A stretch of DNA of 64,000 nucleotides, taken from NCBI GenBank assembly GCA_035646535.1, contig DASRPD010000098.1:33827-97826 (forward strand). Reading direction: 5' to 3'. This document shows positions 8,262-56,371 of the stretch, in pieces. Within the stretch, counting starts at the first letter, position 1. Each line of letters starts with the position of its first letter. The position numbers were made by a program, and so were the translations under genes. Source of the stretch: Acidimicrobiia bacterium. GTDB lineage: Bacteria > Actinomycetota > Acidimicrobiia > IMCC26256 > JANYLB01. Below the pieces are notes generated by a model. It was given only the letters and a program-made list of their open reading frames with translations, did no database searches and was not told where the DNA came from.

Positions 8262-8262
8262 C

Positions 8263-8647: not shown

Positions 8648-8698
8648 GCGCGCGCCTGTTCTGGCCGACCACGGACTAGAGCCCGTCGTCCGCCGTGC

Positions 8699-31111: not shown

Positions 31112-31963
31112 TCAGGGGTCCAGATGCAGCAGTGCGGTCGGGTTGGTGCAAGCCATCCGGCGGATCTCGGCTTCGGCGAGGCCCTCGGCGAAGAGGGCGT
31201 CGGCGTAGGTCTGCAGCCCCGGCGCGGGTCGGGGGTTGATCGCCTGGCCGAAGTCGGTCCCCAGGGTCACGCGATCGGTGCCGACCGCTGCGATGGTGGC
31301 GACCATGTCGGCCACCGAACGGGTCGCCAGTCCGCCGATGCAGGTCATCGCGCACAGCTCGATCCACGCGCCGGCCGCCGCGAGCTCGGCGCACTGGGCC
31401 GCGCTCAGGTTGGGGCCGGCCAGCTCCTCGGTCGCGTGGGTGACGAGCACCGTGCCGCGCGCCGCGAACTCGCGCACGACCGCGAAGTGCTCGGCCGCGC
31501 TGACGTGACCCGTGGCGAGGATCGCGTCGTGCTCGGCGACGAGGTCGAGCACCGCCCGCGTCTCGGCGAGCAGCTCACCGTCGTCGTCGGTCACCACGAT
31601 GCCGGGCCCGGGGATGCCGAGCTGGCCGGCGACGCCGTTCACGACGTCCTGTCGGCTCGACAGGGTGGGAAGCCAGACCACCCGTGCACCCAGAGCCAGC
31701 GCCACCTCCACCGCCGCGGGGTTGACTCCGCCCACCTCCCGGTCGCAGCAGATGCCGCCGATCACGCGCAGACCCTCGACCTGTTGGCCGACCGCCCACG
31801 CGAGCGACGCGGTGGGGAAGGCATGCGACTTGAGCACGATGGCCGCATGACCGGCCGCGGCGGCGTCGGTGGCCGCTTCGACCGCGTCGACCGACCGGGC
31901 GCGGTGCGGGTCGGGCCCGAAGTGGCAGTGCAGATCGGCGGCACCCGCGAGATCGACGCTCAT
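31112..31963 (-). CDS. amidohydrolase-superfamily-like TIM-barrel protein (DUF6282-like, by recollection)
   Basis: Start at MSVDLAGAADLHCHFGPDPH (ATG 31963). It has IVLKSHAFPTA, GGVNPAAVEVALALGARVVWLPT and ILATGH. The N-terminal 234 codons of the 518-aa track ORF are antisense noise. Confidence 0.65.
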   Translation of the reverse strand: MSVDLAGAADLHCHFGPDPHRARSVDAVEAATDAAAAGHAAIVLKSHAFPTASLAWAVGQQVEGLRVIGGICCDREVGGVNPAAVEVALALGARVVWLPTLSSRQDVVNGVAGQLGIPGPGIVVTDDDGELLAETRAVLDLVAEHDAILATGHVSAAEHFAVVREFAARGTVLVTHATEELAGPNLSAAQCAELAAAGAWIELCAMTCIGGLATRSVADMVATIAAVGTDRVTLGTDFGQAINPRPAPGLQTYADALFAEGLAEAEIRRMACTNPTALLHLDP

Positions 31964-31981
31964 GTCGATATCGTCGCACGC

Positions 31982-32929
31982 ATGGCGATTCACTACGAGC
32001 AGAGCTCCGGCCACGTCGTGCTCATCACCATCGACCGGCCCGAGGCCCGCAACGCAGCCGACATGGAGCATTTCAAGCTGCTGCGTGAAGCCTGGGACCG
32101 CTTCCGTGACGACGACGAAGCATGGGTCGCGATCGTCACCGGTGTCGGCGACGCGTTCTTCTCCGGAGCGGATCTGAAGCGCTACGTGCCCGAGATCACG
32201 AAGCTGCAACGCCAGATCAGCGAGCAGGGGCTGACCGAGATCGACGGGTACCGCCTCGACGACGGCGTGAAGGCGGTGCTGCGGAACTACGAGCTCCACA
32301 AGCCGGTGATCGCCGCGGTGAACGGCTTCTGCACCGCGGGCGGGATGGAGATGCTCGGCGGGACCGACATCCGGCTCGCCTGCCCCGAAGCACAATTCGC
32401 GGTCATGGAGCCCAAGCGGGGACTGTTCGCCGGTGGGGGAACGACGGTGCGCCTCCCGCGCCAGATTCCCTGGGCGGTCGCGATGGAGTTCCTGCTCTGC
32501 GCCGACCTCATCCCCGCGTCGCGCGCGTACGAGATGGGTCTGCTCAACGCGGTCGTCCCGGGCGACGAGCTCTTGGACGCGGCGCGGGGCTACGCGGCGC
32601 GCATCGTCGCCAACGCTCCCCTCGCGGTGCAAGCGACGAAGCAGTCCGCCCTCGGTGGCCTTTACCACGATGAGGAAGAGGTGAAGGTCCTCCGCCGGAC
32701 CGTGCGGGGTCTGCGTGACGTGCTCGTGGCGATCGATCCCGATGACCCGCAGACCGCCCGGGTCGCGATCGATGCTGCGGTTGCGCTGTTGGAGGGGGCC
32801 GGTCGGGGCCTGCGCAGCGCGTTCGAGCAGGAGGCGAAGCTCTCGTCGCGAATCTTCTCGACCGAAGACGCTCGAGAAGGCCCACTGGCCTTTGCCGAGA
32901 AGCGCCCTCCGGTCTGGAAGGCCCGCTGA
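31982..32929 (+). CDS. enoyl-CoA hydratase/isomerase (crotonase) family protein with a roughly 45-aa insertion near the C-terminus
   Basis: Start at MAIHYEQSSGHVVLITIDRPEARNA (ATG 31982). It has FFSGADLK and KPVIAAVNGFCTAGGMEM, with C-terminal EGPLAFAEKRPPVWK. Confidence 0.85.
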   Translation: MAIHYEQSSGHVVLITIDRPEARNAADMEHFKLLREAWDRFRDDDEAWVAIVTGVGDAFFSGADLKRYVPEITKLQRQISEQGLTEIDGYRLDDGVKAVLRNYELHKPVIAAVNGFCTAGGMEMLGGTDIRLACPEAQFAVMEPKRGLFAGGGTTVRLPRQIPWAVAMEFLLCADLIPASRAYEMGLLNAVVPGDELLDAARGYAARIVANAPLAVQATKQSALGGLYHDEEEVKVLRRTVRGLRDVLVAIDPDDPQTARVAIDAAVALLEGAGRGLRSAFEQEAKLSSRIFSTEDAREGPLAFAEKRPPVWKAR

Positions 32930-32943
32930 CGTTCTCGTCCCGA

Positions 32944-35010
32944 TCAGGCGCCGACGGTGACGAGCGTGTCGCCGTTGGTGCGCATCTCGGCCCGATCGGT
33001 CGGCCCGAGGACGAGGGCGGTGAACGGGTACTGGACAACGGCGGGTCCCCCGATCACCTGGCCGGGAGCCACGCCGAGTCCTTCGTACACCGCGGCGTCA
33101 TGCCATCCGTTGTCCACGTGGACGCGCCGGATCGCGATCGGCGAGACCTTCTCGTGACCGGCGGTCAGCTCGACGGGCCTGGGTTGGTCGACGAGTCCGG
33201 TGAGCACCAGCCGCACCCCGCGCACGCTGGGCTCCTGGGTACGTGCCTCGATGAGCCGGGCCGCCTCGTTGCGCTGGTGAAACGCCTCGACGGCGGCGGC
33301 GATCGCGTCGCGGGTGATGGGTTCACCCGGTGCCCGCTCGAAGGCCAACGTGGTGTCGAACGTCTGGCCCGGATAGACGAGGTTGACGAACCACTCGGCG
33401 CGGATGCGCTCGTCGGGGACACCGGCCGTACGCAGGTCGTCCAGCCCGCGGCGTTCGAGGCCATCGGCGAGCGCGCTGAGCCGATCGAGGTCGATCTCGC
33501 TCCACGGTGCCAACAGCGCGGCGGTGTCATCGACGACGTGGTCGGCGGTGAGCAGACCGAGCGCCGAGAAGCCCGGCGCGGCGCGCGGCACGAGTACCCG
33601 CCGAACGCCGAGCAGGCGTGCCTGGGTGGTCGCGTGGATACCGCCCATCCCGCCGAACGCGACCAGGTCGACGTCGCGGGGGTCGGCCCCCGCGAGCGAC
33701 AGCACCTTTCGGGTCGCGTCGCTCATGTGCGCGTCGACGAGGCGCACCGCTGCGAGCGCGACCGCTTCCGCGTCGAGCCCGAGCTCGGCGCCGACGCGGC
33801 CGAGCGCGGCGCGTGCCGCGTCGACGTCGAGATCCATCCGACCGCCCCAGAACCCGGCCGGGTCGAGCCGGCCGAGGACGAGATCCGCGTCGGTCACCGT
33901 CGGTTCCGTGCCGCCCCGCCCGTAGCTGACCGGTCCGGGCTCTGCACCCGCCGATCGAGGGCCGACCTGCAGCTGAGAGCGTTCGACGCGGATCACCGAT
34001 CCGCCGCCCGCGCCGATCGCGTGAATGTCGACCATCGGCGTGGCGATGCAGTACCGGTGCCGCCAATTCCAGTCCCGCTTGAGCTCCGGGCGCCCACCCC
34101 GGATCAGGCACACGTCATAGGACGTGCCCCCCATGTCGATGCTCACGACGTCACTCAGCCCCGCGGCTGCCGATGCCCTCGCCGCGGCGACGACTCCACC
34201 GGTCGGTCCCGATCCGATCGTCGTGACCGCTCTTCGGCCGATGACCGACGGTGTCGCCACCCCACCGGCCGCGCTCGCGACGAGCAGCTCCCGCGCGTAG
34301 CCCGCATCCTCGAGTCGAGCCTCCAGCCGGGCCAGGTACCGCACGATCGGCGGACCGACGTAGGCGTTGACGAGCGTCGTGCTGGTCCGCTCGAACTCGG
34401 GCGGCTTGGCGTAGACCTCGTGGGACAACGAGATCAGCTCGACGTCGGGATACTCCTCGCGGATGAGCTCGCGTGCGGCCAGCTCGTGGTCGGGGTTCAG
34501 GTAGGAGTGCAGGAAGACGACCGCAATCGACGTGATCCCGAAGGCCCGCAGGCGGCGGGCCGCGGCGCGCACCGCGGCTTCGTCCAGTGGGGTGTCGACC
34601 TCGCCCTCGGCGGTGATGCGCTCGGCCACCTCGAGGCGCACCCGCCGACGGGCGATCGGCTCCGGCCCGGCCAGCGTCGGGTCCCAGATGTCTTCCTTGT
34701 AGCAGCGGCGCATCTCGATCTCGTCGCGGAACCCCTCGGTGACGATGAGTCCGGTCGGCGCGCCCGACATCTGGATCATCGTGTTGTCGCCGGTCGTGGT
34801 GCCGTGCACGATCGCGTCGGTCCGGGCGAGCAGCTCGGCCGCGCCGCCGAGGCCGACCGAGGCCGCGAGCCGACCGATCCCCTCGAGCACGCCCTCGCTC
34901 TGGTCGTCCGGCGTCGTCGGGGTCTTCTCCAACGTGATCCCGCCGTCGGGGTCCAAGAGCACGAGATCCGTGAACGTGCCCCCGACGTCGATCCCGATGC
35001 GGTAGCTCAT
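32944..35010 (-). CDS. hyuA: hydantoinase/oxoprolinase A-type subunit (HyuA family, ATP-hydrolysing)
   Basis: Start at MSYRIGIDVGGTFTDLVLL (ATG 35010, ATGA overlap with hyuB). 688 aa. DMGGTSYD is present. Confidence 0.9.
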   Translation of the reverse strand: MSYRIGIDVGGTFTDLVLLDPDGGITLEKTPTTPDDQSEGVLEGIGRLAASVGLGGAAELLARTDAIVHGTTTGDNTMIQMSGAPTGLIVTEGFRDEIEMRRCYKEDIWDPTLAGPEPIARRRVRLEVAERITAEGEVDTPLDEAAVRAAARRLRAFGITSIAVVFLHSYLNPDHELAARELIREEYPDVELISLSHEVYAKPPEFERTSTTLVNAYVGPPIVRYLARLEARLEDAGYARELLVASAAGGVATPSVIGRRAVTTIGSGPTGGVVAAARASAAAGLSDVVSIDMGGTSYDVCLIRGGRPELKRDWNWRHRYCIATPMVDIHAIGAGGGSVIRVERSQLQVGPRSAGAEPGPVSYGRGGTEPTVTDADLVLGRLDPAGFWGGRMDLDVDAARAALGRVGAELGLDAEAVALAAVRLVDAHMSDATRKVLSLAGADPRDVDLVAFGGMGGIHATTQARLLGVRRVLVPRAAPGFSALGLLTADHVVDDTAALLAPWSEIDLDRLSALADGLERRGLDDLRTAGVPDERIRAEWFVNLVYPGQTFDTTLAFERAPGEPITRDAIAAAVEAFHQRNEAARLIEARTQEPSVRGVRLVLTGLVDQPRPVELTAGHEKVSPIAIRRVHVDNGWHDAAVYEGLGVAPGQVIGGPAVVQYPFTALVLGPTDRAEMRTNGDTLVTVGA

Positions 35011-36785
35011 GGCGATATCTCGGCTGCGGCCCGTGCGGTACGCATCTCGGCCCGTCGAGCTTCGGTGGCTTCCATGTCGACGGCCAGGTCCATCGCCTCG
35101 AGCGAACCGCTCACGACGACGCCGTAGTCGGCCGTGGCCGCGTCGGCCGAGACGTACTCGTCCCACACGTCGTCGAGCACCGCCTGGGGGTAGCGCAGCA
35201 GCGGGTCACCCCACCCCCCGCCGCCGCCGTACTCATAGACGAGTCGCTCGCCGGTCTCGAGCCGGAAGTCCGCGACGGTGGGCGCGACCTCCACCTCGTC
35301 GGGTGTGCCCGCCCGCAACAGCACCTTGTCGGGCGCGCCGGGGGCGCCGCCGGCGACACCGGGATGCAGGTGAATCCGGTTCACGACGTACTGGTTCAAC
35401 GAGGTCGGCGTGCGCACCTCCTTGATGAACAGTGAGCCGCACCCACCGCGCCACTGACCCGCGCCGGCGGAGTCGGTCCGGTAGTTGCGGCCGCGCAGGA
35501 TGTGCGGGAAGAGCATCTCGTTGATCTCGGCCGGCGCCTTGATGAGATTGCCGTTGCTCGTGCACAGCGCGCCCCACCCGTCCACGCCGCGCACGCCGTT
35601 CACCCAGCCGGCGTTGACCTCGCCGCCGTGATCGAAGAACGGCTGTCCGGAGCGGGGATCGACGTCACCCCACATCTGGCGGGGTGCGCCGTACTTGTAG
35701 GTCTGCGGCGAGCATCGGTCCGGGATGATCTGGCTCATCGCCAGCGTGATCGCGTCACCGACCTCGACGCCCGGGTGATGCGTGCCCGCGCTGACGGGTT
35801 TGCCCTCCACGGGGTTCACGCACGTTCCTTCGGGGATGCGCAGCTCCACACAGTCGAAGAACCCCTCGTTCTTCGGGATCGCCGGGTCCACCATCGACCC
35901 GAGCTGGGCGATCGTGTAGCCGCGGGTGTTGCCGTAGGTTGACCACGCGTTGATCTCGGGTCGGTCGTCGCTGCCGGCGAAGTCGACGATGAGCCGGTCG
36001 CCGTCGACGGTCACGGCGACGTGGACGTGGATGTCGGGGTTGCCCTGCGGGTCCGAGTCGACGTACACGTCGGCCGCATAGGTGCCGTCGGGCCAGGCGC
36101 GGATCTCCTCGGCGAAGCGGTCGTGGGCATCCGCGATGGTCGCGTCGACCGCGGCGCGCACTGCATCGGCGCCGTAGCGATCGACGATCGATTGGAGGCG
36201 TTCCACGCCGAGCTGCGCGGCGCCGAGCTGCGCACGCAGGTCGCCGACGAACCCGGGCATTCGGTTGTTGGCCCGCATGGTCAGCACGACATCGCGACGT
36301 TCCTGACCCCGTTCGATGATCTTGAGGAGGGGGTAACGGACTCCCTCGCTCCAGATGTCACGCGCGAAGACGTTGTAGCCGCCGGCCATTGCACCCCCGG
36401 TGTCGCCGTGGTGGCATTGGATGCTCGCGATGAGGAGCAGGTCGCCGCGCTCGTCGAACAGCGGCGCGAACACGTTCACGTCCGGAAGGTGCCCGCCGCC
36501 GTGATACGGGTCGTTGGCCACGATCACGTCACCCGGGTAGAGCTCGTCGCCGAAGAACTCCAACGCGAAGCGGACCGGCAGTGTGGACGACAACATGAAC
36601 TGCGGGATTCCGACCGACAGCGCCGCGAGGCGCCCTTGCCAGTCGAGGATCGTGGCGTTGCGTTCGTTCGACTGGTTGAGGATCGGCGTCGTTGCCGTGC
36701 GCGACACGTAGGTGGCCATCTCGAAGCAGATGGTCTCCATCGCGGAGCGCACGACCTCGACGGTGACGGGGTCGGTGCTGATCAC
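35007..36785 (-). CDS. hyuB: hydantoinase B/oxoprolinase-type subunit (HyuB family)
   Basis: GTG 36785 is preceded by GAGGAGG. The N-terminus VISTDPVTVEVVRSAMETICFEMATYVSRTA is canonical for HyuB. A GTGA overlap links it to the TetR stop. Confidence 0.9.
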   Translation of the reverse strand: MISTDPVTVEVVRSAMETICFEMATYVSRTATTPILNQSNERNATILDWQGRLAALSVGIPQFMLSSTLPVRFALEFFGDELYPGDVIVANDPYHGGGHLPDVNVFAPLFDERGDLLLIASIQCHHGDTGGAMAGGYNVFARDIWSEGVRYPLLKIIERGQERRDVVLTMRANNRMPGFVGDLRAQLGAAQLGVERLQSIVDRYGADAVRAAVDATIADAHDRFAEEIRAWPDGTYAADVYVDSDPQGNPDIHVHVAVTVDGDRLIVDFAGSDDRPEINAWSTYGNTRGYTIAQLGSMVDPAIPKNEGFFDCVELRIPEGTCVNPVEGKPVSAGTHHPGVEVGDAITLAMSQIIPDRCSPQTYKYGAPRQMWGDVDPRSGQPFFDHGGEVNAGWVNGVRGVDGWGALCTSNGNLIKAPAEINEMLFPHILRGRNYRTDSAGAGQWRGGCGSLFIKEVRTPTSLNQYVVNRIHLHPGVAGGAPGAPDKVLLRAGTPDEVEVAPTVADFRLETGERLVYEYGGGGGWGDPLLRYPQAVLDDVWDEYVSADAATADYGVVVSGSLEAMDLAVDMEATEARRAEMRTARAAAEISP

Positions 36786-37498
36786 GAGGCCTCCTCGGGA
36801 CCGGTTGTGGTCGCGGTCGCGTCGGGCTGGCGGTCTCGACCGGTGCCGAATGCCGACCACGTGAAGCGCAGCAGGTGGGCACGCGCCTGGTCGTAGGTGA
36901 CGAGCGCGCCGACCGCGCGCCGGTGGGCGAGCATGAGGAAGATCACCTGGATCGTCTCGGCGTCGAGCACGGAGCTCGCGTCGGGGAAGCTCCCGTCGGT
37001 CGTGCCCGCTTCGATCGCGCCGCGCAGCAGACGGACGATCGGCTCCTGGACCCGCTGGAACTCACTCGGACGGGTGTGCTGCAGGTACGGGCCCTCTCGC
37101 CAGAAGACCCGGACCCTCGCGGCGCGGCGAGGGTCGAACACGAGCTCGAGGCGATCATCGATCCACGCCGTGACGGCTTCGCGGCTCGAAGTAGTCGCGC
37201 GCATGCGGGCTCCGAGCGTCGCCTCGGATCGTAGGCTCTCGCGCTCCCAGATCGCGACGAGGAACTGGTCCTTCGACTCGAAGTGTCGGTAGAACGCGCG
37301 CGTGCCGACGCCGGCTTCGGTCAGCACGTCTTGGAGGGTGAGTCGCGTGATGCCCTCGCGTTGCAGGACGTCGATGCCCGCGTCGAGCAGGTGGTGCAGC
37401 TCCCCTTCGGCTTCGGCGACGCGACGGCGACCCGCGGCCGCGTCGCTCTCGGTCGGGCCGGACGGGAACGGTTGTGGCGGTGCGGTGAGGCGGGTCAC
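36782..37498 (-). CDS. TetR-family regulator embedded inside the operon
   Basis: 238-aa ORF. LTLQDVLTEAGVGTRAFYRHFESKDQFL is the TetR HTH. Its GTG start (37498) overlaps the ligase stop as GTGA, and its stop overlaps the hyuB GTG as GTGA. Confidence 0.85.
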   Translation of the reverse strand: MTRLTAPPQPFPSGPTESDAAAGRRRVAEAEGELHHLLDAGIDVLQREGITRLTLQDVLTEAGVGTRAFYRHFESKDQFLVAIWERESLRSEATLGARMRATTSSREAVTAWIDDRLELVFDPRRAARVRVFWREGPYLQHTRPSEFQRVQEPIVRLLRGAIEAGTTDGSFPDASSVLDAETIQVIFLMLAHRRAVGALVTYDQARAHLLRFTWSAFGTGRDRQPDATATTTGPEEAS

Positions 37499-39012
37499 GG
37501 CGTCGTCCCTTCAGACGCGAGGAACTGTGCCACGACGTCTCGGCGTACGAGCTTGCCGGTGTCGGTCAGGGGCAGCTCGTCGACGAAGCGGATCTCTTCG
37601 GGAGCCTTGGCGCTGCGCAGCGCCGCGCGGACGAAGTCGGTGAGCTGCGTCTCGGTCGGTGTCGCACCCGGCCGCGTCACGACAGCCGCGGCGATCCGCT
37701 GACCCCACTCCTCGTCGGGCAGACCCACGACGGCGGCGTCGGCGACGCCGCCGTGGCGGCGCAGCACCTCCTCGATCTCGGCCGGCGCGATGTTCTCGCC
37801 GCCTCGGATGATCGTGTCGTCGGCGCGGCCCTCGATGAACAGGTACCCGTCGTCATCGACCCAGGCGCGGTCGCGTGTGGCGAACCATCCGGCCTCGTCG
37901 ACCGTCGCGCCGAGGCCTCGGTACTCGCCGGAGACCTGTTCGCCCCGGACCCACAGGTCACCGGTCTGACCGGCGCCGACCAGGTCACCGGCGTCGTCGC
38001 GGATCTCGATCTCGATGCCGGGTACGACCACGCCCGCCGAGCCGAGCCGAGCGCGCACGGCCGGGTCGTCGCTCGCCAGGGCGTCGCGGTGCTCGTCCGG
38101 TCCGAGCACCGAGATCGTCGAGCTCGTCTCGGTGAGCCCGTAGGCGTTGACGAAGTCGGTGTCCGGGAAGTGCCCCAGGGCCCGTTCGATCACGGTGGCG
38201 GGCATCGGCGCCCCGCCGTAGGCGAGGGTACGTAGCTGCGGCGGCGGCATGGTTCCGGTCGCGTCGAGGTGGTCAACGATCCGGGACAACATCGTCGGCA
38301 CGATGAGCGCGTGGGTGACGGACTCGCGGGTCGCGAGGTCGAGCCAGGCGGCGGGGTCGAAGTTGGCAAGGTGCACGACGCGCCGACCCGCGTAGAGATT
38401 CGTGATTGTGTTCGACACGCCGGCGATGTGGTACGGCGGGACGCTCACGAGGCTCGCGGCGTCCTCATCGGCGTTGGAGAACTCCACCGTCGTCATGACG
38501 TACGCGGCCAGATGGCGATGCCGCAGCACCGCGGCCTTGGGTGCTGCGGTCGTACCGCTCGTGAACAGCAGCAGGGCGGTCGCGTCGGGGTCGCCGTTGC
38601 TTGGCGCGGGTGGACCTTCGGACCAGGCATCGGGCACCGAGGTCGCAAACGAGTCGGTGGTCATCGCCGGGGCGTCGACGTCGGCGACGAGTGAAGCGAG
38701 CGCCGGGTCGTGGACGATGACCGGGTGTTCGAGATCGGCGATGAGGGCGGCGATCTGCTCCGGCGTCTGGCGGTAGTTGAGTGGCACCAGCGGTATCCCG
38801 GCGCGAGCCGCGGCGAACAGCGCGATGGGGAAGGCCGGGCCGTTGGTGCCGACGAACACGAGGTGGCCGGCGTCGAGCGCCGCGAGCCGTTCCGCTCCGA
38901 CCTCGGACCGGGCGGCGAGATCCTCACCAGTCAGCCCGCCGTCGCGCGGCCCGAACGCGACGCGCGAGCCGTGCCCGGAGACCGCCATGTCCAACAGCAG
39001 GTCGAGGTGCAC
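37495..39012 (-). CDS. AMP-dependent acyl-CoA ligase
   Basis: 505-aa ORF (GTG 39012) with LLFTSGTTAAPKAAVLRH, NAYGLTETSS, DGYLFIEGRADDTIIRGGENI and LPLTDTGKLVRR. Confidence 0.9.
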   Translation of the reverse strand: MHLDLLLDMAVSGHGSRVAFGPRDGGLTGEDLAARSEVGAERLAALDAGHLVFVGTNGPAFPIALFAAARAGIPLVPLNYRQTPEQIAALIADLEHPVIVHDPALASLVADVDAPAMTTDSFATSVPDAWSEGPPAPSNGDPDATALLLFTSGTTAAPKAAVLRHRHLAAYVMTTVEFSNADEDAASLVSVPPYHIAGVSNTITNLYAGRRVVHLANFDPAAWLDLATRESVTHALIVPTMLSRIVDHLDATGTMPPPQLRTLAYGGAPMPATVIERALGHFPDTDFVNAYGLTETSSTISVLGPDEHRDALASDDPAVRARLGSAGVVVPGIEIEIRDDAGDLVGAGQTGDLWVRGEQVSGEYRGLGATVDEAGWFATRDRAWVDDDGYLFIEGRADDTIIRGGENIAPAEIEEVLRRHGGVADAAVVGLPDEEWGQRIAAAVVTRPGATPTETQLTDFVRAALRSAKAPEEIRFVDELPLTDTGKLVRRDVVAQFLASEGTTP

Positions 39013-39015
39013 GGG

Positions 39016-39336
39016 TCAGTCCGAGGAGGGGAGGGGCTTGGCACCCTTGATCGGTAGCGGCGTGCCGTTGCACGCGAGCGACCCGTCGCCCGCTTTCGCG
39101 CAGAGCAGCTCCAGGCCGGTCTCGTCGCTCGCGTAGCGCTTGCCGAGCAGCGTCGGATTGTCGGAGTCCGTGGCGTCGGCGCCAAGCGTGCCGGAGTGCG
39201 CGTCGGGTCCGTCGGCCGGCACCATGGCCACCCCGCCACAGGTGATCTCGACCGGTTGGGAGGGTGCGCGGATCACGACGACCTCGGTCGCGCAGACGAC
39301 GCTGGCCAGCTTCGTTCCTGGCTCGAGGTCGGTCAC
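39016..39336 (-). CDS. small conserved hypothetical protein (106 aa, 4 Cys)
   Basis: GTG 39336 forms a GTGA overlap with the CoA-transferase stop. The protein reads VTDLEPGTKLASVVCATEVVVIRAPSQPVEITCGG...LLGKRYASDETGLELLCAKAGDGSLACNGTPLPIKGAKPLPSSD. Its stop lies 3 nt before the ligase GTG. Confidence 0.6.
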   Translation of the reverse strand: MTDLEPGTKLASVVCATEVVVIRAPSQPVEITCGGVAMVPADGPDAHSGTLGADATDSDNPTLLGKRYASDETGLELLCAKAGDGSLACNGTPLPIKGAKPLPSSD

Positions 39337-40553
39337 AGGATCGCTCCCGACGTCTTGAGCTCGATGATCTCGTCCCACGAGTAGCCGAGCTCGAGCATCA
39401 GCTCGTCGGTGTGCTCACCGTGTTCCGGTGCGGCGGTCAGCTGGTGCGGCTGTTCGTCGAACTGCACGGGCGCGCCGACGAGGCTGAGATCGTTGCCTTG
39501 CGCGTCGGTGACCGGGCACAGGTAGCCGTTGGCGATCACCTGCTTGTCGTCATACAGCTCCGGCACCTTCTGTACCGGCGCCCAGACGCCTTCCATCGTC
39601 TCGAGCGCGTCGCGCCACTCGGCGAATGACTTGGACGCGAACGTGTCGGTGATCTCGGCTACGCAGGCCTTCCGATTGTCCGCCCGAACCTTCGCGTCAC
39701 GGTACCGCTCGTCGTCGATGAGATCGGTCCGGCCGAGATGGGTGCAGAAGTCGCTCCAGAACCGGTCGCTCTCCATCATGTTCAGGAAGATCCAGCGACC
39801 GTCGCCGGTGCGGTAGTTGCCGACGAGCGGGTTGGCCGCCGTGTTGTTGGCGAAGCGGGGAATGTCATCGAGTCCGAGCACGCCGCTCATCACGACGTCG
39901 GGTTGCAGTTGCCACATCGCGGTGTTCAGGAGTGACGTGTCGACCACCGCGGCGTGCCCGGTTCGCTCACGCTGGTAGAGCGCGGCGGAGATACCCGCGG
40001 CGATCGCGAGCCCTCCCATCACGTCGCCGATCGCGGGTCGCATCCCGGCCGGCAGGTCCGAATCCGCGGGGCGGAGCGTGTCGCCCATGCCGCCGCGCGC
40101 CCAGAATGACGCGCCGTCGTAGCCACCCTTGGTGGCGTCGGGACCCTTGGCGCCCTGGCCGTGACCGCGCACGTAGATGATGTTCGGATTGGCGGCCCGG
40201 ATGTGCTCGACGTCGATCTGCATGCGGGTCCGCGCGTCGGGCAGGAAGTTGGTGAGGAACACGTCCGCGGTCTTGGCCAGCCGGTAGATCAGCTCGCGCC
40301 CCTCGTCGGTGTGGAGGTCGATCCCGATGCTGCGCTTGCCTCGGTTGGGGAACTGGATCATGAAGTCGGCGCCATCGCCGGACGCGCCGGGCATCACGCC
40401 GAGCGTGGCCAGGCCCCGCTGGGGGTCGCCGGTCTCGGGATGCTCGACCTTCAGCACGTCCGCGCCCCAGTCGGCGAGGATCGCGCCGGCTGCGGGCACG
40501 AAGGTCCAGAAGGCGACCTCGAGCACGCGCGTCCCATGCAGAATGCTGGTCAT
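39333..40553 (-). CDS. family III CoA-transferase (CaiB/BaiF type)
   Basis: 406-aa ORF. GTRVLEVAFWTFVPAAGAILADWGADVLKVEHPETGDP is the typical N-terminus. NFLP and GHG are present. Confidence 0.9.
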   Translation of the reverse strand: MTSILHGTRVLEVAFWTFVPAAGAILADWGADVLKVEHPETGDPQRGLATLGVMPGASGDGADFMIQFPNRGKRSIGIDLHTDEGRELIYRLAKTADVFLTNFLPDARTRMQIDVEHIRAANPNIIYVRGHGQGAKGPDATKGGYDGASFWARGGMGDTLRPADSDLPAGMRPAIGDVMGGLAIAAGISAALYQRERTGHAAVVDTSLLNTAMWQLQPDVVMSGVLGLDDIPRFANNTAANPLVGNYRTGDGRWIFLNMMESDRFWSDFCTHLGRTDLIDDERYRDAKVRADNRKACVAEITDTFASKSFAEWRDALETMEGVWAPVQKVPELYDDKQVIANGYLCPVTDAQGNDLSLVGAPVQFDEQPHQLTAAPEHGEHTDELMLELGYSWDEIIELKTSGAIL

Positions 40554-40577
40554 GAAGGCTTCCCCTCTCGCAGGACC

Positions 40578-40593
40578 GGAAACGTAGTTTTCG
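40578..40593. promoter_or_regulatory. imperfect palindrome in the AT-richest patch upstream of the CoA-transferase operon (TetR operator candidate)
   Basis: GGAAACGTAGTTTTCG has GAAA..N7..TTTC arms and contains AAC-N3-GTT. It lies 25-40 nt upstream of ATG 40553. Confidence 0.3.
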
Positions 40594-40690
40594 TTCGAGC
40601 CGTCGGCAACCCCAGCCGGTCGGGTGTCTTCCCACGCGCCTTGCCCGGCGTGCGGTCAGCGGTGCGAAAGCATGGATTTCACGTCGGGTT

Positions 40691-42169: not shown

Positions 42170-43198
42170 ATGGCGCTGGCGACCGAACGTGACCTCGAAG
42201 AGCTCAGGGCCGGGCTGGTCCGATGGCTCGGCGCGCGACGAGCCACCGACGTCGTCGTGACCGGAATCGAGCGACCGTCGGTCGGTCACTCGAGCGAGAC
42301 CCTCCTCGTCGACTACGAGTGGCGCGCCGACGGAGAGACCGACACCGACCATGTCGTCGTCCGGCTCCCGCCGGCGAGCGGTGGGACGTTCCCCGACTTC
42401 GACCTGACCGCGCAGGCCGCAGCCCAGGCGGCCGCGGGAACCGCCGGCGTGGCGGTGGCCGAACCGACAACCGTCGAGCCCGACGCGAGATGGCTCGGCG
42501 CGCCGTTCATGACGATGCCCCGAGTCGAGGGTCACATCATCGGACCGTCGAGCCCGCACGACCCGTGGCTCGCCGCCCTCGGCGCCCGCGACCAGGCGCG
42601 GCTCCACGACGGGTTCATCGCGACGCTGGGTGCGATCCATCGCGCCGACGCCGATCGGGCGCGCCGTGACGGCGTCGCGGTGCGGGACCTCGCGGCCGAG
42701 CTCGACTATTGGGACGACTACCTCACGTGGTCGTCACCGGGAGCACCGGTCGAGACACTCGTTCTCGCGACAGACTGGTGCCGCGACCATCGCCCCGCCA
42801 CCGACCCGCCGCCGTGCCTGTTGTGGGGTGACGCACGACTCGGCAACGTGATCTTCGCCGACGACCTCACCCCGGCCGCGGTGCTCGACTGGGACATGGC
42901 GAGCATCGGTGCGCCCGAGCACGACCTCGCGTGGTTCCTCACCCTGGAAGCAACCGTCGAGCACGTGACGGGTGCGCGGGTGGCCGGGTTTCCCGGTCGA
43001 GCCGAGACGATCGAGTCCTACGAGCGCGACTTGGGTCGGCCGGTCCGGGACTTCGAATGGTTCGAGACCTTCGCCCAGCTTCGGGCCACCGCGATCATGA
43101 CCCGGATCGGCTACCTGCACGCCGCAGTCGGCGGCACAGGATTGGTACCGATTGCCGATAACCCGGTGCTCGACCTGCTGCGCGAGCGGCTGCGATGA
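42170..43198 (+). CDS. phosphotransferase (APH/choline-kinase fold) family protein
   Basis: 342-aa ORF. CLLWGDARLGNVIF is catalytic-loop-like and VLDWDMASIGAPEHDLAWF is the DxD region. This is the type often linked to acyl-CoA metabolism genes. Confidence 0.8.
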   Translation: MALATERDLEELRAGLVRWLGARRATDVVVTGIERPSVGHSSETLLVDYEWRADGETDTDHVVVRLPPASGGTFPDFDLTAQAAAQAAAGTAGVAVAEPTTVEPDARWLGAPFMTMPRVEGHIIGPSSPHDPWLAALGARDQARLHDGFIATLGAIHRADADRARRDGVAVRDLAAELDYWDDYLTWSSPGAPVETLVLATDWCRDHRPATDPPPCLLWGDARLGNVIFADDLTPAAVLDWDMASIGAPEHDLAWFLTLEATVEHVTGARVAGFPGRAETIESYERDLGRPVRDFEWFETFAQLRATAIMTRIGYLHAAVGGTGLVPIADNPVLDLLRERLR

Positions 43199-44841
43199 CA
43201 GCAACCGTCGCCGACCTGCTCGCCCAGCGAGGTGACGACGAGTCACTCGGTCTCGTCGCCGGTGACGAGTGCTGGAGCTGGGCCGAGGTCGTGGGCGAGT
43301 CGAGACGGTATGCCGCGGCGCTGGCCGGGCTGCGCGGCGACGGTCCCTTCCATGTCGGCATCCTGGCCGAGAACACGCCCGAGTTCCTGTTCACCATGTT
43401 CGGCGCGGCGCTTGCCGGCGCGGTCACCGTCGGTGTCAACTCGACCCGTCGCGGCGCCGAGCTCGCGCGTGACATCACCCACACGGATTGTCGGATCATC
43501 GCCACCGAGGCCGGCCAGGTCGACCTGCTCACCGGGCTGGATCTCAACGACGCCGAGATCGTGAGCATCGACGCACCCCGCTGGGCCGAGCTGCTCGCGA
43601 GGGGCGAACACGCGGCGCAGCCGGCGGCCACCGTCGCGGCTGACGACCTGTTCGTCCTGCTGTTCACCTCCGGGTCGACCGGCGCGCCGAAGGCGGTACG
43701 GATGACCCACGGCCGCGCCACTCGCGCCGCGCTGGCCGCGACGTGGTTCACCGCTGACTCGGTGCTGTACTGCACGATGCCGCTGTTCCACGGCAACTCG
43801 CTCAACGCGATCGTGTTCCCCGCGCTGGCCACGGGCGCGACCATCGCACTGCGCCGCCGGTTCTCGGCGTCGGAGTTCCTCCCGGATTGCCGGCGCTACC
43901 ACGCCACGTTCTTCAGCACCGTGGGCCGCGCGCTCGCGTACGTGCTCGCGACACCCGAGCACCCCGACGATCGAGAGCACGAGGTGCAGTACGGCTTGTC
44001 ACCCGAGGCGTCTCCCACCGACATGGCGGCGTTCACTCGGCGCTTCGGGATACCGCTCGTCGCCGGGTACGGGTCGAGCGAGAACGCCATCGTCATGGTC
44101 CCCGCGCCGGGCCAACCGAAGGACGCGCTGGGCGTGCCCCAGGAAGGCATCGACGCCGCCATCATCGACCCCGACACCGGTGCCGAAGCCGCAACCGCGC
44201 GTCTCGACTCCGACGGCCGTCTGCTCAACCCGACCGAAGCCATTGGCGAGATCGTCGGTCGCAACGTCGCTGATCGCTTCGAGGGCTACTACAACAACCC
44301 TGAGGCCGACGCCGAGCGCATTCGCGACGGTATGTACCTCTCGGGTGACCTCGGGTATCGGGACGGGCGGGGGTTGTTCTTCTTCGCCGGCCGGCGAGGG
44401 GAGTGGCTCCGCGTCGACGGCGAGAACTTCACGGCCGGTCTCGTCGAGCGTGTGCTCGGCCGCTTCCCGGGGGTGAGCGCGGTGGCGGTCTATGCCGTGC
44501 CCGACGAGCGCACCGCCGATGACCAGCCGATGGCAGCCGTCGAGCTCGTTGCCGACGCCGAGTTCGATGCCGAGGCCTTCACTCGGTTCTGTGCCGACGA
44601 GCCCGACCTCGGCACGAAGTGGGCTCCCCGTTACGTGCGGATCGGGCGCCTGCCCGTCGGTGGTACGAACAAGGTCGACCGGCGCGCGTTGCGCAGCGAG
44701 CGCTGGGAGAGCGCGGCTCCGGTGTGGTGGCGCCCGGATCGAACCTCGCCGTACCGACTCATGACCGACGATGATCGACGCGCGCTCGACGAGCAGTTCG
44801 AGGCCCACGGTCGCGCCGGCGCGCTCCGCCGGCCCGGATAG
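43195..44841 (+). CDS. AMP-dependent acyl-CoA synthetase
   Basis: 548-aa ORF with an ATGA overlap (43195-43198). Motifs are LLFTSGSTGAPKAVRMTH, AGYGSSENA and YLSGDLGYRDGRGLFFFAGRRGEWLRVDGENF. Confidence 0.9.
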   Translation: MTATVADLLAQRGDDESLGLVAGDECWSWAEVVGESRRYAAALAGLRGDGPFHVGILAENTPEFLFTMFGAALAGAVTVGVNSTRRGAELARDITHTDCRIIATEAGQVDLLTGLDLNDAEIVSIDAPRWAELLARGEHAAQPAATVAADDLFVLLFTSGSTGAPKAVRMTHGRATRAALAATWFTADSVLYCTMPLFHGNSLNAIVFPALATGATIALRRRFSASEFLPDCRRYHATFFSTVGRALAYVLATPEHPDDREHEVQYGLSPEASPTDMAAFTRRFGIPLVAGYGSSENAIVMVPAPGQPKDALGVPQEGIDAAIIDPDTGAEAATARLDSDGRLLNPTEAIGEIVGRNVADRFEGYYNNPEADAERIRDGMYLSGDLGYRDGRGLFFFAGRRGEWLRVDGENFTAGLVERVLGRFPGVSAVAVYAVPDERTADDQPMAAVELVADAEFDAEAFTRFCADEPDLGTKWAPRYVRIGRLPVGGTNKVDRRALRSERWESAAPVWWRPDRTSPYRLMTDDDRRALDEQFEAHGRAGALRRPG

Positions 44842-44851
44842 GAGGCGACTC

Positions 44852-46051
44852 ATGACGATCCCGCTCACGGAGCTGGACATCGATCCGAGCGTGCCCGGAT
44901 TCTTCCTCCGGCCGGACTACTACGACGTGCTGGGCCGCCTGCGTGCCGAGGCTCCACTGTTCGAGGCCACGCCCGGGACGCGCCTTGTGTCGCGCTACGA
45001 CGACATTCGCGAGATCAGCCGCGACCCCGGTCGGTTCTGTTCGAGTCGTGGCGTGCTCGTCAACGACCCGATGCGCGAAGGCCTCGCCATCGAGGGCTCG
45101 ATCCTGCACACCGATCCACCCCGCCACGGCGAGTACCGCCGCCTGCTCAATCGGGAGTTCACTCCACGAGCGGTCGGCGGGATGGAGCCGCGCATCCGGG
45201 CTCGGACCCGCGACCTGCTCGATGCCATCCCCCGGGGCGAGGAGGTCGATCTCGTCGATGTGCTCGCCGCGCCGCTTCCGGTCACGGTGATCGCCGATGT
45301 GCTCGGGGTCGCCGAGTCGGATCGGTCCGAGTTCCGGCGTTGGTCGGACGCGGCGATCGTCGCATCCGACGGGCGCGCGGATCTTCCCACCGAGGACGCG
45401 GTTGCGGTCGGCGAGCTCGTTTCGTTCCTCGGTGCGCTGGCGGAGGCGAAACGGGCCGATCCCGGTGACGACGTGGTGTCACTGCTCGTCGACCGCGAGA
45501 TCGGCGGCGCGCGACTCTCGCCCGGCGAGCTCATGACGTTCAACATGTCGCTCCTCGTGGCGGGCAACGAGACCACTCGCCACCTCATCTCGGGTGGGTT
45601 CCTCGCGCTGGCCGAACATCCGGACCAGCGGCGCCGCCTCGCGGCCGATCCGTCGTTGATGCCCGGAGCAGTCGAGGAGCTCCTGCGGTGGGTGACCCCC
45701 ATCCAGCAATTCGCCCGGACCGTCGTCGCCGACACGACCGTCGGCGGCGAGCAGGTGCGCGTGGGGGAGTACCTCGTGATGCTCTACGCCTCGGGCAATC
45801 GCGACGAAGCGGCCTTCGGGCCGACTGCCGCGGACTTCGACACCCTGCGACCGCTCAGCCCGCCGAACCTCGCGTTCGGTTTCGGTGAGCACCTGTGTCT
45901 CGGCGCGGCCCTGGCCCGGCTCGAGGCCCGCGTCGTGTTCGAAGAGGTGCTCGACCGGTTCGCCGACTTCGAGCTCGCCGGCCCCTCGACGTACCTGCCG
46001 TCGAGTCTCGTGCGTGGCCCCAGCTCGCTGCCGATCCGCTTCGCGCGCTAG
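44852..46051 (+). CDS. cytochrome P450
   Basis: Start at MTIPLTELDIDP (ATG 44852, GGAGG at 44841-44845). It has the I-helix AGNETT, EELLRW (ExxR) and the heme loop FGFGEHLCLGAALARLE. Confidence 0.9.
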   Translation: MTIPLTELDIDPSVPGFFLRPDYYDVLGRLRAEAPLFEATPGTRLVSRYDDIREISRDPGRFCSSRGVLVNDPMREGLAIEGSILHTDPPRHGEYRRLLNREFTPRAVGGMEPRIRARTRDLLDAIPRGEEVDLVDVLAAPLPVTVIADVLGVAESDRSEFRRWSDAAIVASDGRADLPTEDAVAVGELVSFLGALAEAKRADPGDDVVSLLVDREIGGARLSPGELMTFNMSLLVAGNETTRHLISGGFLALAEHPDQRRRLAADPSLMPGAVEELLRWVTPIQQFARTVVADTTVGGEQVRVGEYLVMLYASGNRDEAAFGPTAADFDTLRPLSPPNLAFGFGEHLCLGAALARLEARVVFEEVLDRFADFELAGPSTYLPSSLVRGPSSLPIRFAR

Positions 46052-46542
46052 CGCCGGGTCGCTACGGCGAGCTCGGTCTCCGCGTCGGCCTCCAGGGCAT
46101 CGAGCAGTCCGTCGAGCACGCGAGTCGTTGCGGGATGGAGGCCGGTCGAGTCGAGGTCGGCCTCCCAGCGATGGAGCTCGCGGTTCACGCGACGGACCAG
46201 GGTGTGGCCGCGCGCGGTCAACTCGACCGTGATGCGCCGCCGGTCGTCGGGATCGTCAGCGCGCTCCAGCCGGCCGGCGGCTTCGAGGCGGTCGAGGGTG
46301 AGGGTCATCCCTCCGGTCGTGCGGCCGAGCAGCTCGCAGATGCCGGTGGGCGTCCCTCGCCCATTCGGGGATCGGCGCACGACCGCGAGCACGAGGTAGT
46401 CCGCGGTCGAGATGGCGTTGCGGGCGGTGATCTCGTCGATCGCGTTCCGCAGGAGCATCTCGACGCGTACGAGCCGGGCGAGCAGCCCCGCGTCGGGCGG
46501 GAGGCCGAGCTCGTCCCAGGTGCCTCGCCGGTTCGACGTCAA
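46048..46542 (-). CDS. MarR-family transcriptional regulator
   Basis: wHTH ICELLGRTTGGMTLTLDRLEAAGRLERADDPDDRRRITVELT. I propose the start at TTG 46542, a TTGA overlap with the upstream amidohydrolase stop. ATG 46638 would overlap that gene by 100 nt. Confidence 0.75.
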   Translation of the reverse strand: MTSNRRGTWDELGLPPDAGLLARLVRVEMLLRNAIDEITARNAISTADYLVLAVVRRSPNGRGTPTGICELLGRTTGGMTLTLDRLEAAGRLERADDPDDRRRITVELTARGHTLVRRVNRELHRWEADLDSTGLHPATTRVLDGLLDALEADAETELAVATRR

Positions 46543-47774
46543 CGGTCGATGCCGAAGCGCGCCAGGCCGTAGCACGCGATCGCGTTGCCGCGCAGGAGCT
46601 GGTAGCACTCGCGCTCGTTCATCTGCGCGCTGGTGCACAGCTGATGGGCGATGGCGCGGGAGTCGGGGAAGCTCCCGTTGGGGTGCGGGAAGTCCGTCTC
46701 GAACACGATCGTGTCCATGCCGACCGCCTCACGACTGCGCAGCCCGTGCAGATCGTCGAAGATGCAGCCGAACACCCGGCCGCGGGCGTAGCTCGACGGC
46801 GGATTCGCCAGCTCGACGCCACCGACGTCTTCGTGCCAGACGCCGTCCATCCGTTCGAATTGGAACGGCATCCAGCCCACCTGACTCTCGGCGTAGGCGA
46901 GCTTGATGCGGGGGAAGCGTTCGAGGGTGCGGGACCAGATCCAATCGGCGAGCGACCCTTGGGCGTTCTGGGAGTTGAGTGACATCGACACCGCCAGCGG
47001 CGCGTCCGGGCTCGTGGTCGGCATGGAAGATGACGAGCCGATGTGCATCGACACGGTCGTGTCGGTCTCCTCACACGCCACCCAGAGCGGGTCCCACTCG
47101 CCGGTGTAGAGCGATGGGTAGCCCAGCTTGGACGGGTTCTCGCTGAACGCGATCGCGAAGCTTCCCTTCGTGGCGCAGCGCCGCACCTCGGCGGCGGCGA
47201 GCTTCGGATCCCACAGCGGCACGAGCGTGAGCGGTACGAGCCGGCCTCGTGCCGCGCCGCCGCACCACTCGTCGATCATCCAGTCGTTGTAGATCTGCAG
47301 GCACGCGAGCGCGAGCTCCTTGTCGGCGCGCTCGGCGAAGCCTTGGCCCGCGAAACGCGGGAAGGTGTTCGGGTAGTTGAGAGCAACGTCCACGTGGTTG
47401 GCGTCCATCGCCGCGAGGCGGGCCGATCGGTCGTAGGCCGACGGCTCGAAGTCCTCATAGATCGCGGGCAGGTTCGCGTGCTGCTCGCGCGGCAGGCTTC
47501 CTGCCGCGTGCAAGAGGCCCGTCGGGGCCACCAGGTCGTCGAAGAGCCAGACGTCGCACCACTGCCCGTCGGCGACGTCCCGCTGCAGGTCGAGCTGACC
47601 GCCGGTGAAGGACAACGCGATCCGCTCGCGCGACACCTGCGGGCCTTGGTCACGCCAGCGGGCCGGGAGCTCACGTTGCCAGAGGTCGCGCGGCTCGAGG
47701 ATGTGGTCATCGACCGAGATGATCCCGGGCAGGTCTGTCTCGGCCGGTGTCACCGATGCAACCGTGGCGGTCAT
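46539..47774 (-). CDS. amidohydrolase-2 family protein, paralog B
   Basis: Start at MTATVASVTPAETDLPGIISVDDHILEP (ATG 47774, GGGAAGGGA SD). It has MHIGSSSS and IVFETDFPHPNGSFP. The N-terminal 147 codons of the 558-aa track ORF are rejected. Confidence 0.85.
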   Translation of the reverse strand: MTATVASVTPAETDLPGIISVDDHILEPRDLWQRELPARWRDQGPQVSRERIALSFTGGQLDLQRDVADGQWCDVWLFDDLVAPTGLLHAAGSLPREQHANLPAIYEDFEPSAYDRSARLAAMDANHVDVALNYPNTFPRFAGQGFAERADKELALACLQIYNDWMIDEWCGGAARGRLVPLTLVPLWDPKLAAAEVRRCATKGSFAIAFSENPSKLGYPSLYTGEWDPLWVACEETDTTVSMHIGSSSSMPTTSPDAPLAVSMSLNSQNAQGSLADWIWSRTLERFPRIKLAYAESQVGWMPFQFERMDGVWHEDVGGVELANPPSSYARGRVFGCIFDDLHGLRSREAVGMDTIVFETDFPHPNGSFPDSRAIAHQLCTSAQMNERECYQLLRGNAIACYGLARFGIDR

Positions 47775-56360: not shown

Positions 56361-56371
56361 GGAGCGCCGTC

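Follow-up and report, generated by a model that had tools for sequence, protein, structure and literature searches.

A window of 64,000 nucleotides (nt; the whole stretch of DNA analyzed here, 68.8% guanine plus cytosine, GC) from an uncultured Acidimicrobiia bacterium carries on its minus strand an array of six genes coding, in order, for a predicted family III coenzyme A (CoA)-transferase, a small uncharacterized protein, a predicted acyl-CoA ligase, a TetR-type regulator, and the HyuB and HyuA subunits of a hydantoinase-superfamily enzyme. We propose that these genes, probably together with an amidohydrolase gene of the Amidohydro_3 family immediately upstream, constitute one co-transcribed and translationally coupled catabolic operon, whose products would channel a lactam into CoA-thioester metabolism, a reading to which we assign a probability of roughly one half. 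The array and the upstream gene are laid out as follows:

39333-40553, minus strand: predicted CoA-transferase, ATG start, 406 amino acids
39016-39336, minus strand: small protein, GTG start, 106 amino acids
37495-39012, minus strand: predicted ANL ligase, GTG start, 505 amino acids
36782-37498, minus strand: TetR, GTG start, 238 amino acids
35007-36785, minus strand: hyuB, GTG start, 592 amino acids
32944-35010, minus strand: hyuA, ATG start, 688 amino acids
40691-42106, minus strand: Amidohydro_3 metal-dependent hydrolase, Pfam PF07969 (E 2.9e-34), 471 amino acids

The six minus-strand open reading frames (ORFs) occupy exactly the positions assigned to them in the initial annotation of this DNA, and the junctions described there can be read directly in the sequence. 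The CoA-transferase stop and the small-protein start share GTGA (39333-39336), the small-protein stop is followed by the ligase GTG after a gap of 3 nt (39013-39015) with no Shine-Dalgarno sequence, and the ligase/TetR, TetR/hyuB and hyuB/hyuA junctions are overlaps of GTGA (37495-37498), GTGA (36782-36785) and ATGA (35007-35010), respectively. These overlaps survive a reassessment of the start codons, every one of which is backed by homology. GTG 39012 is favored over ATG 38988 as the ligase start because the N-terminus is conserved among orthologs, the sequence VHLDLLLDMA fitting the pattern M/V-[HN]-L-x-L-L-L-[DE]-M-A. The small protein, at 106 residues, lies within the length range of its family (100-106 residues), GTG 37498 is the sole in-frame start ahead of the TetR helix-turn-helix domain, which begins at residue 37, and HyuB is matched by its Pfam profile from residue 5 onward and HyuA from residue 4. 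A consensus scan, which is a weak instrument for a 69% GC actinobacterium, recovered no terminator-like or sigma-70-like site within the array. Three additional assemblies, obtained from other samples, carry the same array at 99.98% identity. Overlaps of 4 nt are commonplace in this genome, being shared by the nearby APH/AMP-binding and MarR/Amidohydro_2 gene pairs.

The first gene product of the array is a predicted family III (CaiB/BaiF/Frc-type) CoA-transferase, matching Pfam PF02515 (CoA_transf_3) over the complete profile (1-366 of 366, E 2.3e-91); it stays below every NCBIfam equivalog cut-off, the best being that of succinate-glutarate CoA-transferase (182 bits vs 750), and its closest score against solved structures is at most 141 bits. 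The product of 37495-39012 is a predicted ANL-superfamily acyl-CoA ligase, combining PF00501 (AMP-binding) with PF13193 (AMP-binding_C) and displaying in translation the core motifs TSGTTAAPK, YGLTE, TRD and TGK, the C-terminal catalytic lysine included; it too lies under all NCBIfam equivalog cut-offs. HyuB matches PF02538 (Hydantoinase_B) over the whole profile (1-519 of 519, E 3e-130) and HyuA matches PF05378, PF01968 and PF19278 (Hydant_A_N, Hydantoinase_A and Hydant_A_C), with the Hydantoinase_A/B domains present at full length. HyuA contains the ATP phosphate-binding motifs DVGGTFTD and DMGGTS, and the metal-binding tetrad of HyuB (E41/H99/D102/H125) aligns with that of the caprolactamase subunit CapB (D41/H99/D102/H124) (PMC8453981). 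Among solved structures, the closest are those of caprolactamase, with 414 bits for HyuA against CapA (6YRA_A) and 230 bits for HyuB against CapB (6YRA_B), followed by the fused N-methylhydantoinase (399 and 204 bits for HyuA and HyuB, respectively), acetophenone carboxylase (288 and 95 bits) and acetone carboxylase (236 and 52 bits). The NCBIfam caprolactamase models NF050156 and NF050157 likewise rank first, with 524.9 (alpha) and 264 (beta) against cut-offs of 1000. Based on these best NCBIfam scores lying far under the cut-offs, HyuBA is not an equivalog of any characterized member; with 525 and 264 against 1000 even for caprolactamase, the two subunits lie outside the clades of known substrate, in keeping with the initial annotation, which had found no obvious substrate.

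On this basis we propose a pathway in which the ANL ligase, with its small partner, would form the CoA thioester of a carboxylic acid that contains a lactam or cyclic-amide ring. HyuA would then phosphorylate the amide carbonyl with ATP and the metal site of HyuB would hydrolyze it, opening the ring and generating a second carboxyl group. The family III CoA-transferase could subsequently shift CoA between the two carboxyls, or swap it with a free acid, after which beta-oxidation-type enzymes encoded nearby would proceed. The amidohydrolase might strip an amide or N-acyl group, either before or after the steps carried out by the ligase, HyuBA and the transferase. TetR would repress an upstream promoter until released by an acyl-CoA of the pathway, and its position in the middle of the operon would result in negative autoregulation, as in the Bacillus subtilis lcfA-fadR-fadB-etfBA operon. 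Both the ligase and the transferase would be needed in such a scheme because opening of the lactam on a CoA-activated acid is expected to yield a dicarboxylate mono-CoA ester. A literature search for gene clusters combining a hydantoinase, a CoA-transferase and a CoA ligase found no publication. The co-occurrence of the ligase, the family III transferase and the Hyu enzyme, which had initially appeared puzzling, is nevertheless precedented by the anaerobic indoleacetate catabolic (iaa) operon of Aromatoleum aromaticum/Azoarcus evansii, which codes for the ANL ligase IaaB and for IaaL, a CoA-transferase of family III acting both inter- and intramolecularly (PMC8360864, PMC11659651), and in which a two-subunit enzyme of the Hyd branch is the predicted 2-oxoindoleacetyl-CoA gamma-lactamase (PMC5214803).

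We then compared the array with loci from other organisms, using 80 genome loci around homologs of the small protein and two further contexts (counts are given per 83 loci), together with 80 metagenome loci around HyuB orthologs of 63-81% identity. In 58 of the 83 small-protein loci a ligase ortholog (at least 40%, mostly 45-67% identity) comes directly after the small-protein gene in the same orientation, and CoA-transferase orthologs (at least 40%) are found near the small-protein gene in 12; orthologs of HyuA or HyuB occur in none of the 83, and neither does an ortholog of the window TetR at 40% identity or more. Conversely, the order hyuB then hyuA is kept among the HyuB loci, 57 of the 80 having both genes; these loci are essentially devoid of small-protein, CoA-transferase and TetR genes and show no synteny for them. 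The neighbors of hyuBA are otherwise variable: those confirmed by Pfam comprise two kinds of acyl-CoA dehydrogenase (ACAD), D-aminoacylase-like Amidohydro_3 proteins, other ANL ligases (only 30-35% identical to that of the window), aldehyde dehydrogenase and SCP-x-type thiolase, and those judged by sequence form clusters resembling short-chain dehydrogenases/reductases, cytochrome P450s and enoyl-CoA hydratases (ECH). Given that the modules separate in other loci, the six-gene order is lineage-specific, and the array is a lineage-specific mosaic of the small protein-ligase pair (with CoA-transferase and Amidohydro_3 genes often near), TetR and hyuBA. Consequently, of the six-gene operon originally described, the co-directional, translationally coupled array stands, whereas its status as a conserved six-gene unit does not.

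This mosaic origin brings up a possible, if somewhat doubtful, alternative, namely that rearrangement brought the modules together into an operon of convenience, with joint expression but different substrates; for instance, HyuBA could supply nitrogen by hydrolyzing a free lactam or hydantoin while the other genes handle an unrelated organic acid. The lack of co-conservation of the modules in the two sets of loci, the high variability of the HyuBA neighborhoods and the restriction of the exact array to one population are all consistent with such a scenario. However, the 4-nt overlaps on either side of TetR bind the two halves of the array translationally, and the enzyme set has a published one-pathway precedent in iaa (PMC5214803, PMC8360864). 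Moreover, the recurrence of CoA-metabolism genes around the HyuB orthologs, with ANL ligases and ACADs repeatedly adjacent, supports a link to CoA-thioester chemistry that is typical of the HyuBA clade as a whole.

The comparison also brought to light other recurrent neighbors. In 8 HyuB loci the gene immediately preceding hyuB, in the same orientation, codes for a D-aminoacylase-like Amidohydro_3 protein of about 550 residues, which is found in 15 loci overall (the loci include L088, L089, L094, L097, L100, L103 and L126); it belongs to a subfamily different from the Amidohydro_3 of the window, and its recurrence hints at frequent cooperation of the HyuBA clade with an amide hydrolase. In seven small-protein loci (L011, L029, L035, L041, L045, L060 and L064) a double TetR of about 440 residues, made of two TetR-like halves, is encoded on the minus strand (approximately 7500-9100), a short distance upstream of the small protein-ligase cassette and in divergent orientation to it, beside a gene for a 302-residue ECH-like protein; in other Acidimicrobiia the cassette may normally be regulated by this double TetR. 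Finally, a Cupin_7 (ChrR-like) protein encoded on the plus strand of the window (47922-48434) has relatives of 64-72% identity in 7 other genomes, located 4-10 kb from the cassette, and outdoes every other gene of the neighborhood in conservation.

The regulator, identified by Pfam PF00440 (TetR_N) at residues 37-83, had been considered unusual on account of its position amid the structural genes, a view that needs correction. Ahn et al. (2012) recognized the co-transcribed type as the second group of TetR-family regulators, accounting for 15% of those in three Streptomyces genomes, and the window TetR, overlapping both neighbors by 4 nt, belongs to this class as delimited by a same-strand distance of at most 35 bp (PMC3511530). 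An example is furnished by the lcfA-fadR-fadB-etfB-etfA operon of B. subtilis, in which the second gene codes for the TetR-type FadR, and acyl-CoA, the product of the ligase, releases this repressor from DNA (PMC5397183). The closest homologs of the window TetR, at just 40-44% identity, are operon-coupled too: in one context an ACAD gene overlaps the regulator gene by 1 nt and an AMP-binding gene follows, and in another the regulator gene overlaps an AMP-binding-like gene by 4 nt. We also took a census of the 2.29 Mb of DNA fetched, which is mostly from Acidimicrobiia, was processed with a simple ORF caller and is biased by the choice of loci. It contains 42 TetR-like genes with both neighbors called, 16 of them divergent; 19 are coupled to at least one same-strand neighbor, and 4, including that of the window, on both sides. 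Based on the 19 of 42 that are coupled, we conclude that a TetR gene in the middle of an operon is not rare in such genomes.

As for what this TetR controls, it is unlikely that it is irrelevant to its own operon, whether as a passenger with a distant target or as a regulator solely of an internal hyuBA promoter. No credible operator was found upstream and TetR is conserved with neither module, both of which would fit a passenger; yet adjacent genes are the obvious candidate targets of co-transcribed regulators (PMC3511530), the coupling of its nearest homologs is likewise to ACAD or AMP-binding genes, and FadR in lcfA-fadR-fadB-etfBA offers a worked example of regulation from within (PMC5397183). 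The region where an operator for the array had been proposed comprises two features:

40554-40690, minus strand: 137-nt spacer upstream of the CoA-transferase gene, holding the sole AT-rich patch
40577-40593: imperfect palindrome CGGAAAC-GTA-GTTTTCG, with 6 of 7 arm positions paired

The palindrome put forward as the operator does exist in the sequence but is no better than expected by chance, an equal or better one turning up in 755 of 1000 shuffled versions of the spacer and in 92% of the 137-nt tiles of the window. Its motif is present as a single copy in the window, and a repeat search with a 6-nt seed reported no inverted repeat at this position. The spacer has no match in the sigma-70 consensus scan and none to an Rfam family in a search for riboswitches and leader RNAs, and its RNA fold is unremarkable (z = 0.43). 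By eye, a possible promoter, TTGCCG-N17-TACGTT, overlaps the AT-rich patch, and a Shine-Dalgarno-like GAGAGGGGA lies 6 nt ahead of the CoA-transferase ATG. An operator at the AT-rich patch, coinciding with this possible promoter, is plausible but unsupported.

On the far side of the spacer, 137 nt upstream of the CoA-transferase gene and on the same strand, lies the Amidohydro_3 gene, and 63 nt beyond it begins a divergent operon of APH (phosphotransferase), AMP-binding ligase and P450 genes (42170-46051, plus strand). As Amidohydro_3 orthologs (at least 40% identity) accompany the small protein-ligase cassette within 10 kb in 21 of the 83 loci, we regard this gene as functionally part of the upstream half of the array. 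The transcription unit probably begins one gene earlier than originally described, at Amidohydro_3, and has seven genes in all; whether or not the spacer holds a promoter, the Amidohydro_3 protein is at the least a functional partner of the array.

The remaining question concerns the type of reaction catalyzed by HyuBA. Weidenweber et al. separate the hydrolases from the carboxylases of this superfamily by the presence of two genes without a gamma-subunit gene, by phylogeny and by subunit length (PMC5214803). The array has only two subunit genes, bordered by the TetR gene on one side and by a convergently oriented ECH gene on the other. It contains no gene for a gamma subunit, which in acetone and acetophenone carboxylases bears four conserved cysteines, or for an alpha'/epsilon subunit. 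At 592 and 688 residues HyuB and HyuA are comparable to CapB and CapA (581 and 696 residues), and the acetone carboxylase chains matched measure 776 (HyuB-type) and 717-727 residues (HyuA-type). The acetophenone carboxylase models of NCBIfam score far below their cut-offs (297 vs 1500 for ApcC, 101 vs 1500 for ApcD). All three distinctions point to the Hyd branch, and we accordingly place HyuBA there; by its sequence features it is of the two-subunit lactamase/hydantoinase type, a predicted ATP-dependent hydrolase, and not of the carboxylase type. We also considered the small protein as a ketone carboxylase gamma subunit and rejected this, as it does not co-occur with HyuBA elsewhere. That HyuBA would instead carboxylate a ketone, forming with ATP a beta-keto acid for the ligase or transferase to convert to a CoA ester, in parallel to acetophenone carboxylase with benzoylacetate-CoA ligase or to acetone carboxylase, is very improbable: the family does include carboxylases, the apc operon holds a CoA ligase (PMC5214803) and HyuB has Glu41 where acetone carboxylase has Glu89 (PMC8453981), but a gamma-subunit gene is missing, the 106-residue protein is tied to the ligase and never to HyuBA across 163 loci, the subunit lengths are Hyd-like, with the matched HyuB-type carboxylase chains being longer at 684 (5L9W_A) and 776 residues (5M45_A/5SVB_A), and the Apc and Acx bit scores lie far under those of caprolactamase and N-methylhydantoinase. 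Hence, of the initial suggestion of an ATP-dependent ring-opening or carboxylation step feeding a CoA-thioester pathway, the connection between the Hyu enzyme and CoA-thioester chemistry is supported by the CoA-gene neighborhoods, whereas carboxylation is unlikely.

Several observations nonetheless weigh against a single operon for a lactam-to-CoA pathway. As the modules never occur together outside this one population, operon structure is the sole witness to their functional linkage, and the 137-nt gap weakens the case for co-transcription of Amidohydro_3. With the palindrome being at chance level, no operator can be identified. The first metal ligand of HyuB is Glu, as in acetone carboxylase, and not Asp as in CapB (PMC8453981). 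The assembly ENA ERZ27294418, one of the three that are nearly identical, has T instead of G at window position 38760 (position 10577 of locus L164); ligase codon 85 there reads TAG in place of GAG (Glu85), which breaks the ligase into ORFs of 84 and 389 amino acids and reflects a sequencing error or else a variant in the population with the ligase knocked out. Lastly, among the annotated genes from 12.9 to 62 kb of the window there is no B12-dependent mutase IaaGH, no IaaF-type decarboxylating ACAD, no IaaM and no molybdenum (Mo)-enzyme; as the mutase, the IaaF-type ACAD and the Mo-enzyme are missing among them, the array is not itself an iaa operon.

The least ordinary element of the proposed operon is the product of 39016-39336, an uncharacterized, beta-rich protein of 106 residues that is a conserved upstream partner of the ligase. 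It has no Pfam domain, and among its 212 homologs in the 90% database none is named and none has a Pfam domain. The family comprises at least 1,323 clusters/representatives at 50% identity (E <= 1e-3) and at least 582 matches in contigs sampled at one genome per species, and spans Acidimicrobiia, other Actinomycetota, Myxococcota and Gammaproteobacteria. Invariant or near-invariant positions are G7, P25, C33-G-G, G65-K-R-Y, E76, L78, C79, G83, G85 and L87, together with a C-terminal K-P-L-P-S-S-D (KPLPSSD) tail. The initial label of "small Cys protein" is misleading, as only two of the four cysteines are conserved: among 115 sequences, C33 and C79 are retained in at least 90%, C15 is the residue of the majority only, and C88 is not conserved. 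A zinc-ribbon or Cys4 metal-binding protein was considered and rejected, as it calls for four conserved cysteines and there are just two; Pfam zinc-ribbon and desulforedoxin models give sporadic sub-threshold matches, each to 2 of the 115 members. The AlphaFold2 model built from the 115 sequences is beta-rich (pLDDT, predicted local distance difference test, 88.9; pTM, predicted template modeling score, 0.81), with a variable loop at residues 41-60 and a tail of lower confidence, and a Foldseek search of the PDB yielded no match to the fold (best E 0.43, TM-score at most 0.26). In each of the 150 best representatives, longer proteins included, the domain ends within 2 residues of the last residue, and in nearly all exactly there. 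With the domain thus invariably terminal, a free C-terminus seems to be required. A literature search on the PLPSSD tail motif found no publication.

Members of this family are almost always coupled in translation to one clade of acyl-CoA ligases. In the small-protein loci the ligase start typically lies 3-21 nt past the stop of the small gene, and ligase orthologs of 45-70% identity almost always have a small-family gene directly upstream. In loci selected by the ligase, the small gene is 10 nt upstream of it in the cultured Nocardioides massiliensis and Actinocorallia herbida, and a Nocardia genome likewise has the small gene upstream of the ligase. A programmed read-through fusion of the two proteins, which share a frame in the window with TGA-CCC between them, was rejected, as frames and gap lengths differ across loci. 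We similarly discarded an apparent fusion of an ANL C-domain to the small protein (P0270) as Rosetta-stone evidence, given that it is probably a frameshift artifact in a fragmented long-read contig, and a 606-residue ligase (P0287), which proved to be an internal duplication instead of a fusion.

In addition to the ligase, other enzymes are found as partners. One subfamily (L002, L005-L007, L009, L015 and L027; small gene at approximately 10001-10315 with a TAG stop) lies upstream of a Mo-hydroxylase large subunit in place of the ligase; the hydroxylase gene begins 4-10 nt past the small gene and codes for a stand-alone large subunit of 750 residues (Ald_Xan_dh_C/MoCoBD), and in L002 no genes for Fer2 or flavin adenine dinucleotide (FAD) subunits adjoin it. 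Further members apparently precede ACAD- or ECH-like genes, as read from the initial codons of the ORF that follows. In one lineage, represented by three short-read contigs, a Fer2 (2Fe-2S ferredoxin) domain is fused N-terminally to the small-protein domain; the next gene downstream of this fusion (P0147; L171 750-1454, L172 491-1195) codes for an enoyl-CoA hydratase.

The most economical reading of the small protein is that of a partner, accessory or docking, to the product of the adjoining gene; a carrier role for its tail is speculative. We tentatively raise the possibility that it represents a new and widespread class of dedicated partners of acyl-CoA ligases, acting either as an obligatory accessory subunit or as a carrier or adaptor whose tail docks or is modified. 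In the latter, more radical variant, the KPLPSSD-COOH tail could dock into the active site of the neighboring enzyme, or be acylated or adenylated there.

The array lies within a region (29-57 kb of the window) that constitutes a catabolic island with ECH, P450, Amidohydro_2, thiolase and 2-oxoglutarate (2OG)-oxygenase genes. The stop of hyuA and that of the convergent enoyl-CoA hydratase gene (31124-32929, plus strand) are 14 nt apart (32929-32944), with no terminator-like hairpin between them. The predicted hydratase is 601 residues long, its crotonase domain covering only residues ~296-509; the N-terminal ~290 residues, which match no Pfam family, are either an unannotated domain or the outcome of an over-extended start. 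At the other side of the array, the P450 gene of the divergent operon overlaps a MarR gene convergently by 4 nt at their stops (MarR/Amidohydro_2 at 46048-47774, minus strand), and this MarR gene is itself coupled by 4 nt to the Amidohydro_2 gene, a second case in the island of a regulator within an operon. Further along, a 494-residue protein combining ACP_syn_III_C with a ChsH2 OB-fold (oligonucleotide/oligosaccharide-binding; DUF35-type) domain has a 4-nt overlap with a gene for an SCP-x-type thiolase (54876-57562, plus strand).

The array, from an uncultured member of the Acidimicrobiia of soil or freshwater, ties an uncharacterized and abundant Hyd-type clade, seen at 63-81% identity on 80 metagenome contigs, to CoA-thioester metabolism. 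It supports the idea, for which iaa has so far been the main basis, that the substrates of some Hyd enzymes are lactams that are CoA-bound or carboxylated. It also exposes a large unnamed family of small proteins, whose pairing with the ligase can be tested in cultured Nocardia, Nocardioides and Actinocorallia. If the small protein were necessary for the activity or specificity of the ligase, the annotation of such enzymes as "fatty-acid-CoA ligase" and their heterologous expression would change.

Among small proteins with comparable roles, MbtH-like proteins are the small partners of the adenylation domains of non-ribosomal peptide synthetases (NRPS), and carrier proteins of the LysW type have a conserved, flexible and acidic C-terminal tail that must remain free. 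By functional analogy only, the small protein resembles the former in being encoded beside, and apparently needed by, an adenylate-forming enzyme, and the latter in its conserved C-terminal tail that stays free. However, it shares no sequence or Pfam similarity with either, its beta-rich fold has no match in the PDB, and its partner is an acyl-CoA ligase as opposed to an NRPS adenylation domain (MbtH-like proteins) or an ATP-grasp enzyme (LysW); unlike both, some members of its family precede Mo-hydroxylase, ACAD or ECH genes.

The best sequence matches to HyuBA are CapAB of Pseudomonas jessenii and the N-methylhydantoinase/5-oxoprolinase enzymes, with which it shares the ATP motifs and the metal tetrad; in both capB-capA and hyuB-hyuA there are two subunits and the B gene is placed ahead of the A gene (PMC8453981). 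The context differs, HyuBA being surrounded by genes of CoA metabolism and CapAB by aminotransferase and dehydrogenase genes. As judged by gene content, the array resembles the iaa operon in having an ANL ligase, a family III CoA-transferase and a Hyd-type enzyme, and in the iaa cluster, too, regulator genes (iaaQ and iaaR) lie inside (PMC8360864). Unlike the iaa operon, the array has the extra small protein and Amidohydro_3, and it resides in an actinobacterium whereas the iaa hosts are denitrifying betaproteobacteria; by analogy, the array plausibly works like the iaa operon on a substrate of its own. In its regulatory layout the array is like lcfA-fadR of B. subtilis, with an ANL acyl-CoA ligase gene, then a TetR gene, then downstream catabolic genes (PMC5397183), although the resemblance is limited to operon architecture, with the window TetR scoring 20.1 bits against a cut-off of 200 for B. 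subtilis FadR (NF053878), and the downstream genes code for HyuBA here as opposed to ECH and electron transfer flavoprotein (ETF) in the lcfA-fadR-fadB-etfB-etfA operon. The array thus combines an iaa-like enzyme logic with a FadR-like regulatory layout, each of which is precedented, and the operon itself is an ordinary one.

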